Source: an uncultured Gammaproteobacteria bacterium
Lineage (GTDB): Bacteria > Patescibacteriota > Microgenomatia > Levybacterales > UBA12049
Assembly (NCBI GenBank): GCA_964408485.1
Contig: CAYOZJ010000004.1
Span: 8,685-72,684 of the forward strand
Length of the DNA: 64,000 nt
Direction of reading: 5' to 3'
The notes under the pieces are model-generated. The model ran no database searches. It saw only the letters and a program-made list of their open reading frames with translations, and was not told the DNA's origin. Of the stretch, positions 2,022-59,412 are shown in pieces. The position numbers and the translations under genes were made by a program. How positions within the stretch are numbered: position 1 is the stretch's first letter; each line of letters begins with the position of its first letter.

Positions 2022-2267
2022 ATTCCTCATTATATTGTTATTATTTTTCACAAAAATATACATCTAAATGTGTTATATGTTTTATTATTGTTGTTTTTAG
2101 TTATTATCATTTTGATGTGTTTAATTTTTCCTTCCGTACCAATCTAATCGAATTGTTTTGAAGCTAACAAAAACTATTGACAAAATAATAAAAATCTTTC
2201 ACGATGAATGTATCTTAATTCTGCCCAAATAAATTTTGTTGGGAGACAAAAAAAGGAGGTGAGTTAC

Positions 2268-2339
2268 ATGCCAGTAAAGAAAAGAAAAGTTGCAAAGAAA
2301 AAAGTTGCAGCAAAGCGAAAGACAAAGAAAAGAAAATAG
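2268..2339 (+). CDS. 23-aa Lys/Arg-rich micro-protein MPVKKRKVAKKKVAAKRKTKKRK with a strong SD (AAAGGAGGTGA, 7 nt spacer). Possibly a bS22/Thx-like ribosomal peptide or other basic micro-protein.
   Basis: Perfect SD plus ATG, seen directly. Composition resembles very small basic ribosomal peptides. No homology check possible. Confidence 0.35.
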   Translation: MPVKKRKVAKKKVAAKRKTKKRK

Positions 2340-2601
2340 TTTTTTGTTTTGATCTTTGTGAGATCAATACCAATTGATCGATTGGTACATCCCCCGTCAG
2401 CAATGATGGGGGATTACTTTTTATCTCCGTTGAAATATGTTAGAATAATAATGGTAGTAATTCGGGGGTCCTGCCAGGAATTCATTCCCGCAGATGCTCA
2501 CAAGGTGGTTCCAGTAGGTACCAATTGTTCCGCGTCAGCGGGATCCCTTTCTTCCTGTCACCCCTACATAATACTTACTACATACTACGTAATACATATT
2601 T

Positions 2602-5283
2602 ATGGTTTTTTCACTTCTCTCTAAATTATTTGACTCTAACGAAAAAGAAATTCAAAAACTTCAACCAATTGTTGATGAGATTACTAATCTGGAACCTAAA
2701 ATGCAAAAACTCAAAACAGAAGATTTTGCTAAGAAAACAGAAGAATTTAAAAAACGGATTGCAAAAGGGGAATCACTTGACGATTTGTTGCCCGAGGCGT
2801 TTGCGCTGACTAGAGAAGCTGCGAAAAGAAGTATTGGACAGCGCCACTTTGATGTGCAGCTTATGGCAGCAATTACACTTTCTCTTGGAAAGATTGCTGA
2901 GCAAAAAACAGGAGAAGGAAAAACATTATCTGCTGTGCCTGCGCTCTATCTTCATGCGCTAACAGGAAAGAATGTTCATTTAGTAACAGTCAATGATTAT
3001 TTGGCCAGGCGAGACGCAGGGTGGATGGGACCTGTCTTTCATCTTCTTGGAATTCGTGTGAGTGCAATTATTGGAGAAAAATCCTTTATCTACGATCCTA
3101 AGTTTACTAATAGTGCTGCAGGTGACTCTCGATTACTTCATTTAAAAGAAATTAGTCGTCAAGAGGCGTACAAAGCAGATATTGTGTATGGAATTAATTC
3201 TGAATTTGGTTTTGATTATCTTCGTGACAATATGGCGCAGGATGTAAATCAGTTAGTACAACGGGGATATTATTTTGCCATTGTTGATGAAGTTGATTCG
3301 GTTCTTATCGATGAAGCACGAACACCACATATTATTTCTGCTCCTGAGGCAGAGCCAACACAAAAATACTATGAATATGCAAAAATTGTTGAGAAATTAA
3401 ATTCCGAGACAGATTACAAAATAGACGAAAAGCTAAAAACAGTCCATCTTACCGAGCATGGCCTTGCAAAAATTGAAAAATTGTATGGTATTGCAAATAT
3501 TTATGAAAAAGATTTTGATACGGTATACCACTTAGAGGCAGCACTCAAAGCCAAAACACTTTTCCACCGCGAAAAAGATTACATTGTTAGGGACAACGAA
3601 GTTATTTTAGTGGATGAGTTTACCGGACGTCTTATGGTCGGAAGACGTCTTTCTGAAGGATTACATCAGGCAATAGAAGCAAAAGAAAATGTTCCAATTC
3701 AAAGGGAGTCCAAAACACTTGCAACTGTTTCTTTGCAGAATTATTTCAGAATGTATGAAAGACTAGCTGGTATGACTGGTACAGCAGTTACTGAGGCGGA
3801 AGAGTTTCATAAAATCTACAAATTAGATGTTATTGTTATTCCAACAAATAATCCAATTGCAAGAAAAGACTATGCAGACGCAGTATATAAAACAACTCCA
3901 GCAAAGATAACAGCAGTGGTAGAGGAAATTGCTCGTGTCCATGCAACAGGACAGCCAATTCTTGTAGGTACGACCTCCATTGATAAAAATGAAATTCTTT
4001 CACAGCTTTTAACTCGCAAAGGCATAAAACATGATGTGTTAAATGCAAAAAATCATCTGAAAGAAGCAGAGATTATTGCGAAAGCAGGAGAAAAGGGTGC
4101 TGTGACTGTTGCAACCAATATGGCAGGACGAGGAGTAGATATTGTTTTGGGCGGTTCTCCAGAGGAGAATGTGAAAGCCAAAAAAGAATGGGAAAAGAAG
4201 AATGCAGAAGTAAAGTCTCTTGGAGGACTTTATATTATTGGTACGGAAAGACACGAGTCACGCCGTATTGATAATCAGTTACGAGGACGAGCTGGGCGTC
4301 AGGGGGATCCCGGAACAAGTAAATTCTTTGTTGCTTTAGATGACGAAATAATGCGGCTTTTTGGTGGAGATACTATTGCAGGGCTTATGACGCGGTTTAA
4401 TATGCCCGATGATATGCCACTAGAGCATCCGTTGGTAAGTAGGGCAATAGAGCAAGCACAAGTAAAGGTAGAAGGGTTTAACTTTGATAGTCGTAAACAT
4501 TTAGTTGAGTATGACGATGTTTTGAATAAACAGCGAGAGATTATCTATGCACTTCGTAGAAAGGCCCTAGAGCAATCAGGAGATCCCTTAAAGGATGAAA
4601 TACTTGCAAAACTGGACAATGCACTTGCATCAATTGTTGCAATGTCTGAGACAAGTACTGTTGCGTCAGGAAAATCAGGAAATGAAATTATTCTTGAAGA
4701 ATTTACTGCAATAATTCCTTTCGACGAAGCGTCTCGCGAGCAGCTTCTTGCACAGTTGCAGCAGTTACAAAATCCTCAGGCAAAAACAGAATTTTTAAGT
4801 ACATTAGCTCACGATCTCTATACCAACAGAACAAAAGAGTTGGGAGAAGACCTGATGCGTCAAATTGAAAAATATGTAGTTCTTTCTGTTGTAGATGCGT
4901 TGTGGGTAGATCATTTAGATGCTGTTGACAATTTGAGACAGGGAATTGGTCTTCGGGGATATGGGCAAAGAGATCCACTCGTTGAATATAAGAATGAAGC
5001 ATTTCGTATGTTTGAGCAACTTGTTGCTGCGCTTGATAATGAAATAGTCCATAGGATATTCCGAGTTAATGTGCAGCCTGCGCCTGAGCACGAGCATGTA
5101 CACATAGATACTAATGTTGCTGCGGTAACCATGGGGCAAGAGAGTTCTAGCGTCATTGCGAAGAGTGAAACGACGCGGCAATCTAAATCTATAGATAAAA
5201 CTAAATTAGGACGCAATGATCCGTGTTGGTGTGGATCTGGGAAAAAATGGAAGAAATGTCACTATCCACAATTACCAAACTAA
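2602..5283 (+). CDS. secA: Preprotein translocase ATPase SecA (893 aa) with C-terminal zinc-binding CWCGSGKKWKKCH tail
   Basis: DEAD-like motor motifs (GEGKTL, DEVDSVLIDEARTP), wing/scaffold regions and the C-terminal metal-binding domain. Confidence 0.95.
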   Translation: MVFSLLSKLFDSNEKEIQKLQPIVDEITNLEPKMQKLKTEDFAKKTEEFKKRIAKGESLDDLLPEAFALTREAAKRSIGQRHFDVQLMAAITLSLGKIAEQKTGEGKTLSAVPALYLHALTGKNVHLVTVNDYLARRDAGWMGPVFHLLGIRVSAIIGEKSFIYDPKFTNSAAGDSRLLHLKEISRQEAYKADIVYGINSEFGFDYLRDNMAQDVNQLVQRGYYFAIVDEVDSVLIDEARTPHIISAPEAEPTQKYYEYAKIVEKLNSETDYKIDEKLKTVHLTEHGLAKIEKLYGIANIYEKDFDTVYHLEAALKAKTLFHREKDYIVRDNEVILVDEFTGRLMVGRRLSEGLHQAIEAKENVPIQRESKTLATVSLQNYFRMYERLAGMTGTAVTEAEEFHKIYKLDVIVIPTNNPIARKDYADAVYKTTPAKITAVVEEIARVHATGQPILVGTTSIDKNEILSQLLTRKGIKHDVLNAKNHLKEAEIIAKAGEKGAVTVATNMAGRGVDIVLGGSPEENVKAKKEWEKKNAEVKSLGGLYIIGTERHESRRIDNQLRGRAGRQGDPGTSKFFVALDDEIMRLFGGDTIAGLMTRFNMPDDMPLEHPLVSRAIEQAQVKVEGFNFDSRKHLVEYDDVLNKQREIIYALRRKALEQSGDPLKDEILAKLDNALASIVAMSETSTVASGKSGNEIILEEFTAIIPFDEASREQLLAQLQQLQNPQAKTEFLSTLAHDLYTNRTKELGEDLMRQIEKYVVLSVVDALWVDHLDAVDNLRQGIGLRGYGQRDPLVEYKNEAFRMFEQLVAALDNEIVHRIFRVNVQPAPEHEHVHIDTNVAAVTMGQESSSVIAKSETTRQSKSIDKTKLGRNDPCWCGSGKKWKKCHYPQLPN

Positions 5284-9105: not shown

Positions 9106-9999
9106 ATGTTCCTCTTTGGTAAAAAGATAGCTCACAAACAAGTTAGCCACTTCGAGTCGCTTTCAGAAAAATGGACAGCGCGGCATAGGAGTTTACAGGA
9201 AAAGCTTTGGGAAAAGCATGCCAGGGCTCTTGAGCATCTAAAAAACAAAACAAAGCAATTTGCTGCAGGGTCTTTGGCAGCGGCTATGCTTATTGCGTCT
9301 CCTGGTGCAGCACTATCGACTGCTACTCCTCACACTGTAAAGGAAGTACATTTTAAAGATTTAGATACAGAGACAACCTTTCTTTTAACGCTTGGTTCTC
9401 TTGTTCCGAAAGAGGTACGCCCACTTACACAAGATGAGGAAAGTCATATTGGAAAGATTTTATCAGACCAACTAGGAGCAACGGTGAGTGCAGAGCTAGA
9501 AGGAATTCGTCTCAATCGTTCCTATGGATATATTGGTCAAGAGCAGCATTTAGCCCGTTACAAGGGAGACTCTATGGATACCCATTTCGCATCGGGAGAA
9601 GATGCGCAAAAATATTATGACTATGGCATGGCGCCTGGACTTGGTGCGTATGGATATTTTGCAAAGTCAGGTAATATGACAAAACTTGAAAGTGACCGTG
9701 AAAAATACTACATTGCAGTACAGACATTTTTAGCCCCAGGTTATTTGGAAAATACTAAAAAAATGAATGAGTTTTTTGCATTTCATAAAATGCTCGTTGT
9801 GAATCCGGAAAATGGAAAAGCAATTGTTGCAGATATTGGTGATAGTGGGCCTTCTGAATGGACAGGGAAATCTCTTGGTGGGTCTCCTGAGGTTATGCAC
9901 TACTTAGAGCGAGTTGATGGTGCACAAAAAGGGCCAGTTATTTATATGTTTATCGATGATCCACATGATAAAATTCCATTAGGGCCAGTACAGCTCTAA
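9106..9999 (+). CDS. Hypothetical membrane-anchored protein. The C-terminal region resembles an RlpA-like double-psi beta-barrel (DPBB/3D) domain.
   Basis: N-terminal hydrophobic segment AAGSLAAAMLIASPGAAL. C-terminal VVNPENGKAIVADIGDSGPS..SLGGSPEVMHYL fits the loose RlpA/3D pattern V.N..NG..v...i.D.GP....dlS. Confidence 0.45.
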   Translation: MFLFGKKIAHKQVSHFESLSEKWTARHRSLQEKLWEKHARALEHLKNKTKQFAAGSLAAAMLIASPGAALSTATPHTVKEVHFKDLDTETTFLLTLGSLVPKEVRPLTQDEESHIGKILSDQLGATVSAELEGIRLNRSYGYIGQEQHLARYKGDSMDTHFASGEDAQKYYDYGMAPGLGAYGYFAKSGNMTKLESDREKYYIAVQTFLAPGYLENTKKMNEFFAFHKMLVVNPENGKAIVADIGDSGPSEWTGKSLGGSPEVMHYLERVDGAQKGPVIYMFIDDPHDKIPLGPVQL

Positions 10000-10489: not shown

Positions 10490-11413
10490 ATGGCTATTTT
10501 AGATGTAAAAAATTTGACGAAAAAATTCGGTGAATTTACTGCTGTTAATGACGTTTCTTTTTCGTTGAAAGAGGGAGAGATATTGGGATTTCTCGGCCCA
10601 AATGGTGCTGGAAAAACAACGACACTGCAGATGTTGCTTGGTGTACTAACACCTACAAGCGGAGTGATTCGATATTTCGATAAAGAATTCCCAAAATACC
10701 GAACAGAGATTCTCGAACATGTTAATTTTTCTTCAACATATACAAATCTTCCGTGGTGGTTAACGGTGAAGGAAAATCTTCATTGGATTTCATATCTGTA
10801 TGACATAAAAAATAGAAAAAAAAGAATTGAGGAAATAGTTGAAGCATTTCGTTTAGAAGATATTTATAACCAGTCAATGACAGAATTGTCTGCTGGCCAA
10901 TTAACTCGCGTTAATCTTGCAAAAGCGTTCTTGAATTATCCTAGAATTCTTCTTCTTGATGAGCCAACGGCATCACTTGACGTTGAAATAGCGGAATATA
11001 TTCATGAGTTTTTACTGACACAACGGGAAAAATTTCAAGTTTCAATAATTATCACTTCCCATAATATGTCGGAGGTTGAAAAACTCTGTGATCGCGTTAT
11101 TGTTGTTAATGCAGGAAAAATTATTGCAGATGATACGCCACATGAATTGTCTCGACTCATTGAAAGTTCTAATATACAGCTTCTTATTGCAAAAGGAGAG
11201 GAAAATTTGTTGAAACTTCTAAAAAAAGAAAACATTGTGTATAAAAAGCGAAAAAATACATTTACTCTTGAAGTTGCGACAACAAAAATTGCACCTATAT
11301 TGCAGCAGTTGACACAGCATAATATCGTTTATGACGAGCTGACAATAGAAAAACCAAATCTTGAAACATATTTCTTGCATGCAATAAAAGGAGGTAAAAA
11401 TGAAGTGGCATAG
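10490..11413 (+). CDS. ABC transporter ATP-binding protein (ABC-2 exporter type)
   Basis: Walker A GPNGAGKTTTLQML, signature LSAGQLTRVNLAKAF, Walker B LLLDEPTASLD. Confidence 0.9.
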   Translation: MAILDVKNLTKKFGEFTAVNDVSFSLKEGEILGFLGPNGAGKTTTLQMLLGVLTPTSGVIRYFDKEFPKYRTEILEHVNFSSTYTNLPWWLTVKENLHWISYLYDIKNRKKRIEEIVEAFRLEDIYNQSMTELSAGQLTRVNLAKAFLNYPRILLLDEPTASLDVEIAEYIHEFLLTQREKFQVSIIITSHNMSEVEKLCDRVIVVNAGKIIADDTPHELSRLIESSNIQLLIAKGEENLLKLLKKENIVYKKRKNTFTLEVATTKIAPILQQLTQHNIVYDELTIEKPNLETYFLHAIKGGKNEVA

Positions 11414-48452: not shown

Positions 48453-48526
48453 AATATTTAACCCATTCGATAAGCTCAGGGATAAAATATTTTTTCCTGA
48501 GCGAGCAAAGCGAGTCGAAGGATAAT

Positions 48527-48667
48527 ATGAACCCACAAGATTATAGTTTGAGAAAAGATTTACGAACTCAACTGTGTCCTGTCTGTACGTCTCCAATGGG
48601 TGATATGCCAGGAAGTAGAGATGCTTATTGTTCTAACTGCGGCTACAAAGATCCGTGTTGTGAATAA
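48527..48667 (+). CDS. 46-aa zinc-ribbon micro-protein (CPVC...CSNC)
   Basis: Two CxxC pairs. ATG sits directly after a family A-type repeat that supplies an AAGGA SD-like sequence. Confidence 0.4.
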   Translation: MNPQDYSLRKDLRTQLCPVCTSPMGDMPGSRDAYCSNCGYKDPCCE

Positions 48668-48672
48668 TTGAC

Positions 48673-48942
48673 TTAAAATCGTGGAGGAACTTTAGGTTTT
48701 CTTCTTAAGTTTGCCAATAATTCTCTTGCCGCTTTTACTTCTCGAGCAGTAAATCTTCCCAGTTCATCAGGGTGTTCATTGAGAGCATTAGCAATTTCCT
48801 GAGCTGATAATCGTTTCCTTTTTTCTTCGATATGGCGAGATCCAGAATTTTTATCAAATCGACCTACTGCCTTTATTTTCGTTATATAGAGCTCATTTCT
48901 TTCACTGGCAGATAATGGAGCTAAGGTATCACCTTTGCGCAT
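48673..48942 (-). CDS. Hypothetical 89-aa basic/helical protein
   Basis: ORF only. Confidence 0.35.
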   Translation of the reverse strand: MRKGDTLAPLSASERNELYITKIKAVGRFDKNSGSRHIEEKRKRLSAQEIANALNEHPDELGRFTAREVKAARELLANLRRKPKVPPRF

Positions 48943-48993
48943 ATATGCATTTTACCACAAAGGCAATCTATCTGAGTTTTTCCCATACAAAAA

Positions 48994-49030
48994 CCCCCGC
49001 CTTCAAATGAGAATTAGCGAGGGGGTTTTT
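48994..49030. terminator. GC-rich hairpin flanked by A5 and T5 (AAAAACCCCCGC...GCGAGGGGGTTTTT), bidirectional-terminator-like
   Basis: Seen directly. Located downstream of the minus-strand micro-ORF 49047-49190. Confidence 0.45.
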
Positions 49031-49046
49031 GATATGCAATTGGCGC

Positions 49047-49190
49047 TTATGCACCAATTTTAAACATGCCTGTGCCACAAACTGGACACTTAGCTTTCTT
49101 TGCATGTTTGCCGTTTTTCATAACGACATCTTCTGCATCTTCAACATCTCTCTTAGCTCGGCATTTTACGCAATACATTGTTACTGTCAT
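49047..49190 (-). CDS. 47-aa zinc-ribbon micro-protein MTVTMYCVKCRAKRDVEDAEDVVMKNGKHAKKAKCPVCGTGMFKIGA (DUF5679-like pattern) with a strong SD
   Basis: CxxC...CxxC, SD GAAGGGGGGTGAAATACC then ATG. Not in the ORF track because it is under 60 aa. Confidence 0.45.
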   Translation of the reverse strand: MTVTMYCVKCRAKRDVEDAEDVVMKNGKHAKKAKCPVCGTGMFKIGA

Positions 49191-49313
49191 GGTATTTCAC
49201 CCCCCTTCGCCATCCGTAACTTTAGTGTAGGATGGTTTCACTCCTTAATTTTTACTACTGTGTTGTCTGTTTAAGGTTCAGGCTTCGGGGGGCACGCCCC
49301 CTATTTCCCCATA

Positions 49314-58674: not shown

Positions 58675-58900
58675 AACCTTCTCTTCGAGATGGTATTCCG
58701 TGAAATCGTTTCATTGCCCTACTCATTTCTGCTTGTTGTACATTTTGTCTTTGATGTTTTGGTTTACGAGAAGGATTTTGTTTTGAAGATGATCCATTTG
58801 TAACCTTTCTTTCAGTTTTTCCCTGACGACTAGTATTCTTAAAAAGAATTACATCAGAAATGTTTGGAAGATATTTTTGTAAAACATTTCTTTCTAGCAT
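58664..58900 (-). CDS. Hypothetical 78-aa basic protein
   Basis: ORF only. Rich in K/R/Q. Confidence 0.3.
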   Translation of the reverse strand: MLERNVLQKYLPNISDVILFKNTSRQGKTERKVTNGSSSKQNPSRKPKHQRQNVQQAEMSRAMKRFHGIPSRREGFRQ

Positions 58901-58993
58901 AGTAGCAGCATTATAATAAATTCTTTTTAAGAAATCAAAAAATTAAGCGGTAAGATAATCTCCTACCGCCTATTTAGTCCTTAGCAATAAATA

Positions 58994-59152
58994 CTAATTG
59001 CCACTACCGTTACGGCTTCGTTGGCCTTTTTGTTGCAGACGTGCCCATCTTGTTCTTGGATCAGGTGCTGCATCTGTTCTATATTTCTTTTTAAGTTCAA
59101 CCTGTTGAGCTGTTCTTGGATCAACTGATTGATCTGCTTCACTTGTTTGCAT
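58994..59152 (-). CDS. 52-aa micro-protein MQTSEADQSVDPRTAQQ...DPRTRWARLQQKGQRSRNGSGN with a strong SD (AAAGGGGGTGAAAAAAT then ATG)
   Basis: The SD context is nearly identical to that of micro-ORF 49047-49190. Internal DPRT repeat. Not in the ORF track. Confidence 0.35.
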   Translation of the reverse strand: MQTSEADQSVDPRTAQQVELKKKYRTDAAPDPRTRWARLQQKGQRSRNGSGN

Positions 59153-59236
59153 ATTTTTTCACCCCCTTTCTTTTAGTATTTTCTTTCATAGTTTTGTTTA
59201 CTTGACTTCTTTTAGACATATTTCAACCATAAAAAA

Positions 59237-59275
59237 TCTCCCTATATCTAAAGGGAGATTGTACGCACTTTTTAC
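59237..59275. promoter_or_regulatory. 8-bp hairpin (ATCTCCCT/AGGGAGAT) followed by a T-run on both strands. Bidirectional terminator-like, between the micro-ORF and aspS.
   Basis: Seen directly. Plus strand gives ...GGGAGATTGTACGCACTTTTT. Minus strand gives ...GGGAGATTTTTTAT. Confidence 0.35.
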
Positions 59276-59412
59276 GCCAGATCTCCCCCTATTGAATAGG
59301 AAGATTACAAATGTAAATAAAGTGTCGGACGGAATTTGTCATATGACTACTTTATCATACCAAAGTTAGAAAACCCTTGTCAACAGGGTATTTAACCAGG
59401 TACAATAGCCAC

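Follow-up and report, generated by a model that had tools for sequence, protein, structure and literature searches.

A predicted micro-gene for a polycationic peptide in the serS–secA gap of an uncultured Patescibacteria lineage

The gap between serS and secA was analysed in a 64-kb stretch of DNA (contig CAYOZJ010000004.1, hereafter the window), which by its sequence belongs to a Patescibacteria (Candidate Phyla Radiation, CPR) genome of the Microgenomates/Levyibacteriota type. This gap of 580 nt holds two unrelated things, a micro-gene unit at 2147-2424 and a hairpin at 2464-2565 in the 5' untranslated region (5'UTR) of secA. Our best explanation, to which we give a probability of about 60%, is that the former is an independent micro-gene (~2147-2424) for a polycationic nucleic-acid-binding micro-protein and the latter a separate, lineage-specific insertion. 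Comparison with relatives shows a translated and autonomous gene; for the function of its product we infer, and favour, an association with the ribosome. A preliminary description of this DNA had singled out the gap as unusually long and non-coding. Its length stands, with serS ending at 2021 and the secA ATG at 2602, and short intergenic gaps are indeed the norm in the window, the other long ones lying at ~48453-49313 and 58675-59346. Most of the supposedly non-coding sequence, however, is a missed gene with its signals.

The micro-gene and its conservation

The unit at 2147-2424 is predicted to be a self-contained transcription unit, composed of a promoter, a 5'UTR hairpin, a Shine–Dalgarno sequence (SD), an open reading frame (ORF), two hairpins and an intrinsic terminator, all on the forward strand, as are the other features of the gap. 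The candidate promoter region (2147-2205) contains a conserved TTTTGAAGC at 2156-2164, an A-rich tract, a -35 element TTGACA at 2177-2182, a 17-nt spacer and a -10-like CACGAT at 2200-2205; the same place in L081 (L numbers denote related loci) reads TTGACA-N17-CAATAT. Counted from the predicted transcription start, the 5'UTR is roughly 55 nt long. Just upstream of the SD it contains the hairpin CCCAA-ataaatttg-TTGGG (2224-2243), for which RNAalifold pairs columns 5-11 with 19-25; the changes among relatives are one-sided (U-G to U-A), and the relatives' form is CCAAATAAA..TTATTTGG. The extended SD AAGGAGGTGA (2253-2262) can pair over 10 nt with the canonical 3' end of the 16S rRNA, and is present as a single copy in the window against 0.15 expected.

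The micro-ORF starts 5 nt after this SD and runs for 23 codons plus TAG (2268-2339), encoding MPVKKRKVAKKKVAAKRKTKKRK, with Lys or Arg at 14 of the 23 codons (61% K+R). The preliminary description had reported a 23-codon ORF behind a textbook SD, and its translation is reproduced exactly. None of the alternative frames of the region is both open and provided with a start. In the source record, the only call here is apparently a 43-amino-acid (aa) ORF, P0121 (2208-2339), which begins at an in-frame ATG in the 5'UTR, before the SD is reached. Conservation places the start at the ATG at 2268 instead, and the longer call is apparently an artificial over-extension of the micro-ORF.

Three RNA hairpins follow the stop codon. 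Hairpin 1, TTGATC-tttgtga-GATCAA (2349-2367), had been overlooked previously. Hairpin 2, TACCAAT-tgatcg-ATTGGTA (2368-2387), includes the ACCAAT-TGATCG-ATTGGT at 2369-2386 that had been recognized earlier, while the second hairpin named at that time is not CCCCCG..CGGGGG but ATCCCCCGTCA-GCAA-TGATGGGGGAT (2389-2414). The latter belongs to an intrinsic terminator identified by a terminator scan (2389-2424), with an 11-bp stem ATCCCCCGTCA/TGATGGGGGAT that has 6 GC pairs, a GCAA loop and an interrupted U-tract, TTACTTTTTAT. It thus has the make-up of a Rho-independent terminator (a GC-rich stem of 7-12 bp, a short loop, a U-rich tract and pairing that is kept). At least 7 different stem sequences, with compensatory pairs, occur among ten loci, and all of them fold at -17 to -22 kcal/mol with T-rich tails after the stem. 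Since so many different stems keep the fold, the terminator is genuine and maintained by compensatory change.

The unit was located after serS in nine further lineages, on contigs encoding the nearest SecA homologues (77-82%, then 73-75% identical). Together with L081 and a shorter copy in L083, 11 distinct relatives carry it, with SecA 71-82% identical. An nhmmer profile of the unit recovered L163 and the loci listed below with E values of 1e-82 to 1e-15; L163, a truncated contig, contains the 3' hairpins only. Among the closest relatives in the genome collection, no nucleotide match to the gap was found. The peptides read MPVKKKKKTTKKKTATKRKTKKRK (L161), MPVKKRKTAKRKTTAKRKTKKRK (L162), MPVKKRKTTTKRKTATKRKTKKRK (L164), MPVKKKKKVVKKKVATKRKTKKRK (L165/166), MPAKKKKTAKRKTATKRKTKKRK (L167/168), MPVKKKKKVVKKVAKRKTKKRK (L169), MPVKKKAKKTVKKVAKRKTKKRK (L170), MPVKKAKKVAKKKTTTKKKTTKKRK (L171) and MAVKKRTTKRTTKKVTKRKTTKRRK (L177), and L081 has a shorter form of 11 aa, MAAKKKAKKKK. 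The orthologues of 22-25 aa and the window peptide have a K+R content of 52-64%.

Mean pairwise identity, averaged over 9 relatives, is 79% in the promoter region, 86% in the SD and spacer, 88-89% at the ORF ends, 61% in the ORF middle, 95% in hairpins 1 and 2, and 63% in the terminator, with pairing kept; the flanking serS and secA coding DNA is 74-76% identical. Within this pattern the ORF has a clear coding signature. In the seven 22-24-aa orthologues that formed the test set, the amino acids of the last eight codons (KRKTKKRK) are invariant and every DNA change is synonymous (CGA/AGA at the first position, AAA/AAG, and AGA/AGG/CGA), compared with ~18% of random single changes expected to be synonymous in this block by chance. 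The more distant L171 and L177 show conservative changes only, namely K/R exchanges and one inserted T. The spacing from the ATGCCAGTAAAG block to the C-terminal block varies only by 3-nt steps, giving 22, 23, 24 or 25 codons, and the ORF middle, despite its low identity, retains K/R clusters between small residues (V, A, T). The SD is invariant in the relatives, where it is longer as GGAGGTGAT in L164, L170, L171 and L177 and as AAGGAGGTGATC (12 nt) in L081, and an invariant ATG follows the perfect SD after 5-6 nt. On these comparative grounds, the synonymous-only C-terminal changes, the frame-preserving indels and the perfect SD 5-6 nt before the ATG show translation of the ORF and, at both of its ends, purifying selection on the amino acids of its product. 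The micro-ORF of the preliminary description is thus conserved across the 11 relatives, with its frame kept.

A separate promoter for secA lies behind the terminator (2430-2461, again with a predicted start site), with a -35 element TTGAAA at 2430-2435 and two overlapping extended -10 candidates, TGtTAGAAT at 2438-2446 and TGgTAGTAAT at 2452-2461. The arrangement TTGAAG-N17(TGn)-TAnnnT is present upstream of secA in all close relatives, and it is kept in L001, L082, L002 and L090, none of which has the unit. L177 has the unit after serS and then the gene of a 580-aa TPR protein; its secA has a promoter of its own and lies a further 2 kb on. The unit's own terminator, the separate secA promoter, also in unit-less relatives, and the TPR gene downstream in L177 together show, by comparison, that the unit is an autonomous gene with secA as its neighbour by happenstance, and not a secA leader. 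The leader peptide considered in the preliminary description is therefore not supported.

Three further observations concern the unit. A direct repeat TTGAAGCARAG flanks the unit, in the window at 2156-2166 (upstream of TTGACA) and at 2428-2437 (the -35 of the secA promoter), and is clearer in L164, L165, L170 and L171; it is compatible with a promoter duplication or an insertion event. In L161, L164, L165, L169 and L170, the spacer that separates the -35 from the -10 element (aligned to window 2183-2199) contains a palindrome GTGAAAAATATTTCAC, which was rejected as an operator, being degenerate in the window, L167 and L171. RNAalifold proposed that UGCCAGU, in the start region, pairs at long range with AUUGGUA; this was unsupported, as its columns are invariant or broken in L167, L177 and L081.

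Hairpins 1 and 2 and post-transcriptional control

Hairpins 1 and 2 are more strongly conserved than the flanking essential coding DNA. Hairpin 1 is near-invariant in the relatives, except that L081 has a GTAAAGTATATATACTTTAC hairpin instead, and hairpin 2 is the most conserved piece of the locus; in L170 it carries a C-to-T change that retains a G-U pair. The G-U pair kept in L170 and the hairpin swap in L081 point to an RNA-level role for these sequence-constrained elements. They also hold the window's sole cluster of 3 GATC sites within 45 nt; overall, the window has mildly fewer GATC sites than expected (154 versus ~219). Folding compared with shuffled sequence gave z = -5.5 for 2340-2601 and z = -6.2 for the whole micro-gene transcript. 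Scans of viral contigs with the hairpin-2 pattern returned only one unrelated phage coding region, matched four times, and those with the SD-ATG pattern returned no match.

The strength of the SD is exceptional for this genome. Among 58 predicted genes in the window, 40 lack even an SD 4-mer and 3 have a strong SD; under generous rules, at most 16 of 55 genes have any SD 4-mer. By analogy, a long SD in an SD-poor genome combined with 3'UTR hairpins would suggest post-transcriptional, and possibly autoregulatory, control. The nearest parallel is rpsU (bS21), the lone strong-SD gene in SD-blind Flavobacterium, which is autoregulated via the availability of the anti-SD (PMC9976891, PMC13000453). 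Like rpsU of Flavobacteriia, the micro-gene is a gene for a small basic protein with a 10-12-nt SD in a mostly SD-less genome. Unlike rpsU, its product is unrelated to bS21, and a good SD is also present here at one or more internal operon genes (at least that at 11400); autoregulation would be a matter of pure analogy. A 10-12-nt SD accompanied by hairpins that are better conserved than essential coding DNA nevertheless makes the locus one at which post-transcriptional control could be tested for an uncultured lineage.

The conservation of the hairpins raises the alternative that the unit is a small regulatory RNA of ~210 nt, acting through hairpins 1 and 2 and perhaps through an exposed AAGGAGGUGA complementary to the anti-SD, with the A/G-rich ORF incidental or secondary, as in a dual-function small RNA. 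The identity of the hairpins (95%) compared with that of the genes (74-76%) and the ORF middle (61%), the stability of the whole transcript, and the possession of a promoter and terminator of its own are all consistent with this alternative, as is the shrinkage of the ORF to 11 codons in L081 and 9 in L083 with hairpin 2 and the terminator persisting in L081. The C-terminal codons, however, change only synonymously, including the first-position CGA/AGA exchange, the frame is kept across the 22-25-codon variants, and the ATG stays 5-6 nt behind a perfect SD. The closed or startless alternative frames, the absence of an Rfam family and the absence of any identified target complementarity also argue against it, and we consider a primarily RNA-level function rather improbable.

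Affinities of the peptide

A peptide of 22-25 residues that is ~60% Lys/Arg would be expected to act as a polycationic nucleic-acid binder. By analogy with bS22, eL41, Thx and the tails of CPR ribosomal proteins, it would most likely be associated with rRNA or the ribosome. The pointers are circumstantial: a bS22-like size and K+R content, the likeness to CPR tails, the rpsU-like SD, and mini-ORFs that neighbour hpf and secA in distant lineages.

In ribosomes that contain it, bS22, a helical peptide of ~30-33 aa, occupies the h2/h27/h44/h45 pocket of the 16S rRNA in the 30S subunit. Like the micro-gene, the genes of bS22 (DUF1713/AURKAIP1-COX24; mycobacteria, Bacteroidota and Borrelia), eL41 and mS38 are tiny, stand-alone and usually missed by annotation. 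Their products, of 24-33 aa and ~60% Lys/Arg, agree in size and composition with the 23-aa window peptide (61%), and the micro-gene probably shares high expression with bS22. Borrelia bS22, for instance, is a previously unannotated protein of 30 aa with 61% K/R (PMC10618245). The window peptide differs from bS22 and eL41 in being rich in K instead of R, in its loss from close relatives, in its variants of 9-11 aa and in lacking sequence similarity to them. The idea of a bS22/Thx-like peptide, put forward in the preliminary description, therefore holds as the best analogy in size (22-25 aa), K+R content and strongly signalled stand-alone gene, and does not extend to family membership by sequence.

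The peptide gave no match in Pfam or NCBIfam at E<=10, and a profile of 8 orthologues gave 0 matches among all PDB chain sequences at the same threshold. In the same PDB search, 25-33-aa bS22 and eL41 queries used as controls recovered bS22/mS38 and eL41. Pairwise hhalign probabilities were 0.6% with bS22 and 1.3% with eL41, values to be read with the little power that family tests have for 23 low-complexity residues. The orthologue profile also gave no PDB match to Thx or bL37, the sequences of which were never queried or used as controls. With the 43-aa extended ORF as query, only that ORF itself was found, also in an exhaustive search of 1.84 billion representatives; since the 43-aa call of the source record is all that the protein searches return, the peptide family is not called in public gene sets.

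A second likeness is to the appendages of CPR ribosomal proteins, some of which have Ala/Lys-rich extensions of ~25 aa, such as the uS19 C-terminus in Parcubacteria (PMC9297842). The micro-peptide resembles these tails in composition (K, A, V, T, P), ~25-aa length and phylogenetic setting, and differs from them in that its gene stands alone, equipped with a promoter, an SD and a terminator. In L001, bS20 (2276-2644) was observed to have a Lys/Ala/Pro-rich C-terminal extension of ~40 aa (…KKAPAKKTAPVKKAAPKAAKKPVAKKAPKKAAKK), with a composition like that of the micro-peptide.

A relaxed scan of distant Patescibacteria revealed mini-ORFs rich in K/R/A/V/T, accompanied by terminators, between murB and hpf-secA or secA, often starting with MA or MPxKK. 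The gene order is murB, mini-ORF, hpf, secA in L028 (37 aa, 3289-3402) and L102 (19 aa, 2524-2583), with hpf identified by Pfam Ribosomal_S30AE. In L125 (34 aa, MPAKKK...AKRKTAKRG, 2655-2759) and L030 (67 aa, starting MPTAKK, ~1884-2087) the mini-ORF is followed directly by secA. L008 has a small K/R-rich ORF on the reverse strand (1540-1605).

These longer ORFs bear on a further alternative, that the peptide is a minimal nucleoid polycation of the histone-H1-like Hc2 type, compacting or neutralising the DNA of an ultra-small cell, and not a ribosome component. Hc2 and Lys-rich nucleoid proteins share with it a Lys/Ala-rich low complexity and, in its putative distant relatives, a variable length: these run to 19-67 aa of KKxV/KKAAP-type repeats (L030, L028, L125), and their composition resembles H1 tails. 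The sub-threshold Hc2 matches of L030 (67 aa) and L125 (34 aa), at 11.5-11.9 bits and E ~0.2, are compositional and lie far below the cut-offs of 40 (Pfam HC2) and 135 (NCBIfam Hc2). The window peptide, 5-8 times shorter than Hc2, has no match of its own. The proximity to hpf, the gene of a ribosome hibernation factor, in L028 and L102 and the tightly kept length and termini within the window's clade argue against the nucleoid reading, to which we give a small chance.

Several points weigh against a conserved ribosome-associated peptide encoded by an independent micro-gene. It has no sequence homology with known small proteins of the ribosome or with known DNA-binding ones, as far as the comparisons made here reach, and the K-rich ORFs beside murB are of too low complexity for homology with the window's clade to be provable. 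The 19-67-aa range of these putative distant relatives, together with the ORFs of only 11 aa in L081 and 9 aa in L083, is unlike that of a protein fitted to a fixed rRNA pocket, and more like that of low-complexity polycation tails. The best-conserved segment of the unit is its non-coding 3'UTR, so part of the function may lie at the RNA level. The unit is, moreover, missing in the close relatives L001 and L082, and hence is dispensable; the serS–secA spacing is just 12-112 nt in L001, L082, L089, L003, L002 and L090.

Traces that would fit loss were seen at two loci. Right after serS, L001 (3945-3990) has GGGGTTTTTTTTGAGGCTGATATATGGTAAGAT, corresponding, in a comparison with L081 2940-3000, to the 3' half of the L081 terminator plus the secA promoter. 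This match suggests that the unit has been deleted in L001, with GGGGTTTTTTTTGAGGCTGATATATGGTAAGAT resembling a deletion scar. L083 has a degenerate copy of the unit (377-620), 2 kb upstream of secA and before an RtcB gene, with TTGACAAAGTGGGAAAAATATTCA, a weakened SD GGCGGTGA, a 9-codon ORF MAKKRKKKK and a hairpin without a U-tract; this copy may be decaying.

Ribosomal peptides as small and basic as bS22, bL37, bL38 and Thx surfaced only in cryo-EM ribosome structures because gene callers skip them, and the micro-protein is a new, unannotated member of this class of tiny polybasic bacterial peptides. CPR ribosomes are reduced, and no structure of one from an isolate was found in the literature searched; the polycation gene is a concrete candidate to seek in CPR ribosomes or nucleoids. 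A bolder extension, which we regard as unlikely, is that polycationic micro-proteins of 9-67 aa beside hpf or secA form a Patescibacteria-wide family and a new ribosome-bound or hibernation-linked component, which would compensate for trimmed rRNA and ribosomal proteins and be gated by the 10-12-nt SD, through the availability of the anti-SD, and by the 3'UTR hairpins, possibly the peptide's own binding site.

The secA 5'UTR and the genomic setting

The predicted secA 5'UTR is roughly 135-150 nt long. At its 5' end lies the second element of the gap, a GC-rich imperfect hairpin of 102 nt (2464-2565), specific to the window, with a minimum free energy of -43.1 kcal/mol (z = -4.9 for region 2460-2568; 0 of 200 shuffles as stable). 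The GC-richer sequence reported earlier before secA is indeed present, with GC rising from 0.18-0.27 at 2000-2250 to 0.42-0.53 at 2400-2550. Both GGGGGTCC and GGGATCCC occur but are not paired with each other; GGGGGT at 2464-2469 pairs with an ACCCCT stretch ending at 2565. The repeated motif also noted amounts to TACCAATTG (9 nt), at 2368 and 2519, with nothing longer repeated; its 3 copies in the window, against 0.9 expected, are not significant, as 7 of 100 shuffles reach 3. The remaining 3' part (2566-2601) is A/T-rich and unstructured, has no SD before the ATG at 2602, and is partly alignable with the end of the L161 UTR (ACTTACTAC...AATAC).

No homologue of the hairpin, in sequence or structure, was found among 176 related loci, and no second copy in the window. 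A cmscan of 1900-2750 at E<=10 gave chance-level matches only, the best at 21 bits against a gathering score of 56, and Rfam gave nothing at the gathering score over the whole window. Other structured inserts in secA 5'UTRs were seen in L161 (2885-2960), L162/L165 (L162 238-300), L163 and L172/L177 (L172 1885-1995, ~105 nt, -34 kcal/mol), unrelated to the window hairpin in sequence and size. Sister lineages are almost without a secA leader, and in about half of the close relatives only 3-17 nt separate the -10 element from the ATG (6-17 nt in L164, L167, L169, L170, L171, L001, L002, L082 and L090). With no homologue in relatives, unrelated inserts in some and none in others, the hairpin is best read as a lineage-specific insertion into a short secA leader. 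At most, a reasonable guess would be a 5'-terminal stabilising stem of the secA mRNA.

The preliminary description had proposed a regulatory leader RNA for secA, which in its fuller form would be a conserved cis-regulatory element at 2464-2565, such as a riboswitch, a thermosensor or an autoregulatory SecA-binding site. The position between the predicted secA promoter and the ATG, the stability of the fold, a sub-hairpin within it (2527-2544) that resembles a terminator and precedes CCCTTTCTTC, and the structured inserts of relatives would fit such a leader. The lack of any homologue in the 176 loci largely refutes it; there is also no Rfam match, the relatives' inserts are unrelated and about half of the close relatives are nearly leaderless; the hairpin ends 36 nt before the ATG, which is unpaired in the fold, so no occlusion is expected. 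That structure is not conserved in relatives is also the outcome which the preliminary description had itself named as speaking against its leader RNA, and we rate a conserved leader as quite improbable. The eye-catching GC-rich hairpin is thus not a conserved riboswitch. Signal recognition particle RNA (4.5S), 6S RNA, transfer-messenger RNA (tmRNA) and known riboswitches were likewise rejected: the GGGGG...CCCC ends are 4.5S-like, but there is no significant Rfam match, the apex lacks GNAR/AGCA motifs, and ARAGORN found no tRNA or tmRNA. An origin as a miniature inverted-repeat transposable element or other repeat was rejected for want of a second copy in the window or in any related locus.

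Least probable of all is a cis-acting leader peptide or attenuator of the trpL/hisL, TnaC or SecM type, in which stalling at Lys/Arg codons or on the polybasic chain would remodel the hairpins and gate terminator read-through into secA. The resemblance lies in a short codon-biased ORF (14 of 23 codons Lys/Arg) upstream of secA, followed by three hairpins of which the last is a terminator. Hairpin 1, 4-13 nt past the stop, would be within reach of a terminating ribosome, the pairings TTGATC:GATCAA, GATCAAT:ATTGATC and ACCAAT:ATTGGT are mutually exclusive, and the conserved C-terminal residues with the stop codon recall arrest peptides; E. coli secA, moreover, is regulated by the upstream ORF secM. 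The terminator stem, however, takes part in no conserved alternative pairing that could serve as an antiterminator, and drifts while hairpins 1 and 2 stay fixed; the distance from stop to hairpin 1 varies; and both ends of the peptide are conserved. The downstream gene is not a promoterless operon: secA has its own promoter between the terminator and its ATG, as in the unit-less relatives, and in L177 the next gene, which has a promoter-proximal start of its own, encodes the TPR protein. Nothing apparent ties SecA to the supply of Lys or Arg, and the peptide has no hydrophobic segment, signal peptide, arrest motif, or SecM or TnaC motif; secA itself lacks an SD.

As to the setting, serS was assigned by the Seryl_tRNA_N/tRNA-synt_2b domains of its orthologues. 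In its N-terminal region, SecA shares 74-79% identity with its counterparts in one Levyibacteriota metagenome-assembled genome and two metagenome contigs, and full-length SecA reaches 82% identity to uncultured relatives. Between the serS stop and the unit lies an AT-rich spacer (2022-2146, GC ~0.18-0.24), with an equivalent, poorly conserved A/T-rich stretch in relatives; the AT-rich part of the gap contains TTTTTCACA-like words that would allow a candidate DnaA-box/oriC reading. Many ATGs in the window lie 6-8 nt 3' of TATAAT-like or TGnTAnnnT sequences (e.g. the starts at 9106, 21904, 24743, 28792 and 33396). This proximity to -10 elements suggests leaderless or near-leaderless mRNAs in this genome, a signal that is statistically unclean, as TAnnnT also precedes 12% of internal start-like codons at a distance of 4-10 nt. 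In the other two long gaps, at 48453-49313 and 58675-59346, Rfam gave no match; the former holds small Cys-rich ORFs of zinc-ribbon type, at 49047-49190 (reverse strand, 47 aa, CxxC...CxxC) and 48527-48667 (forward strand, 46 aa).

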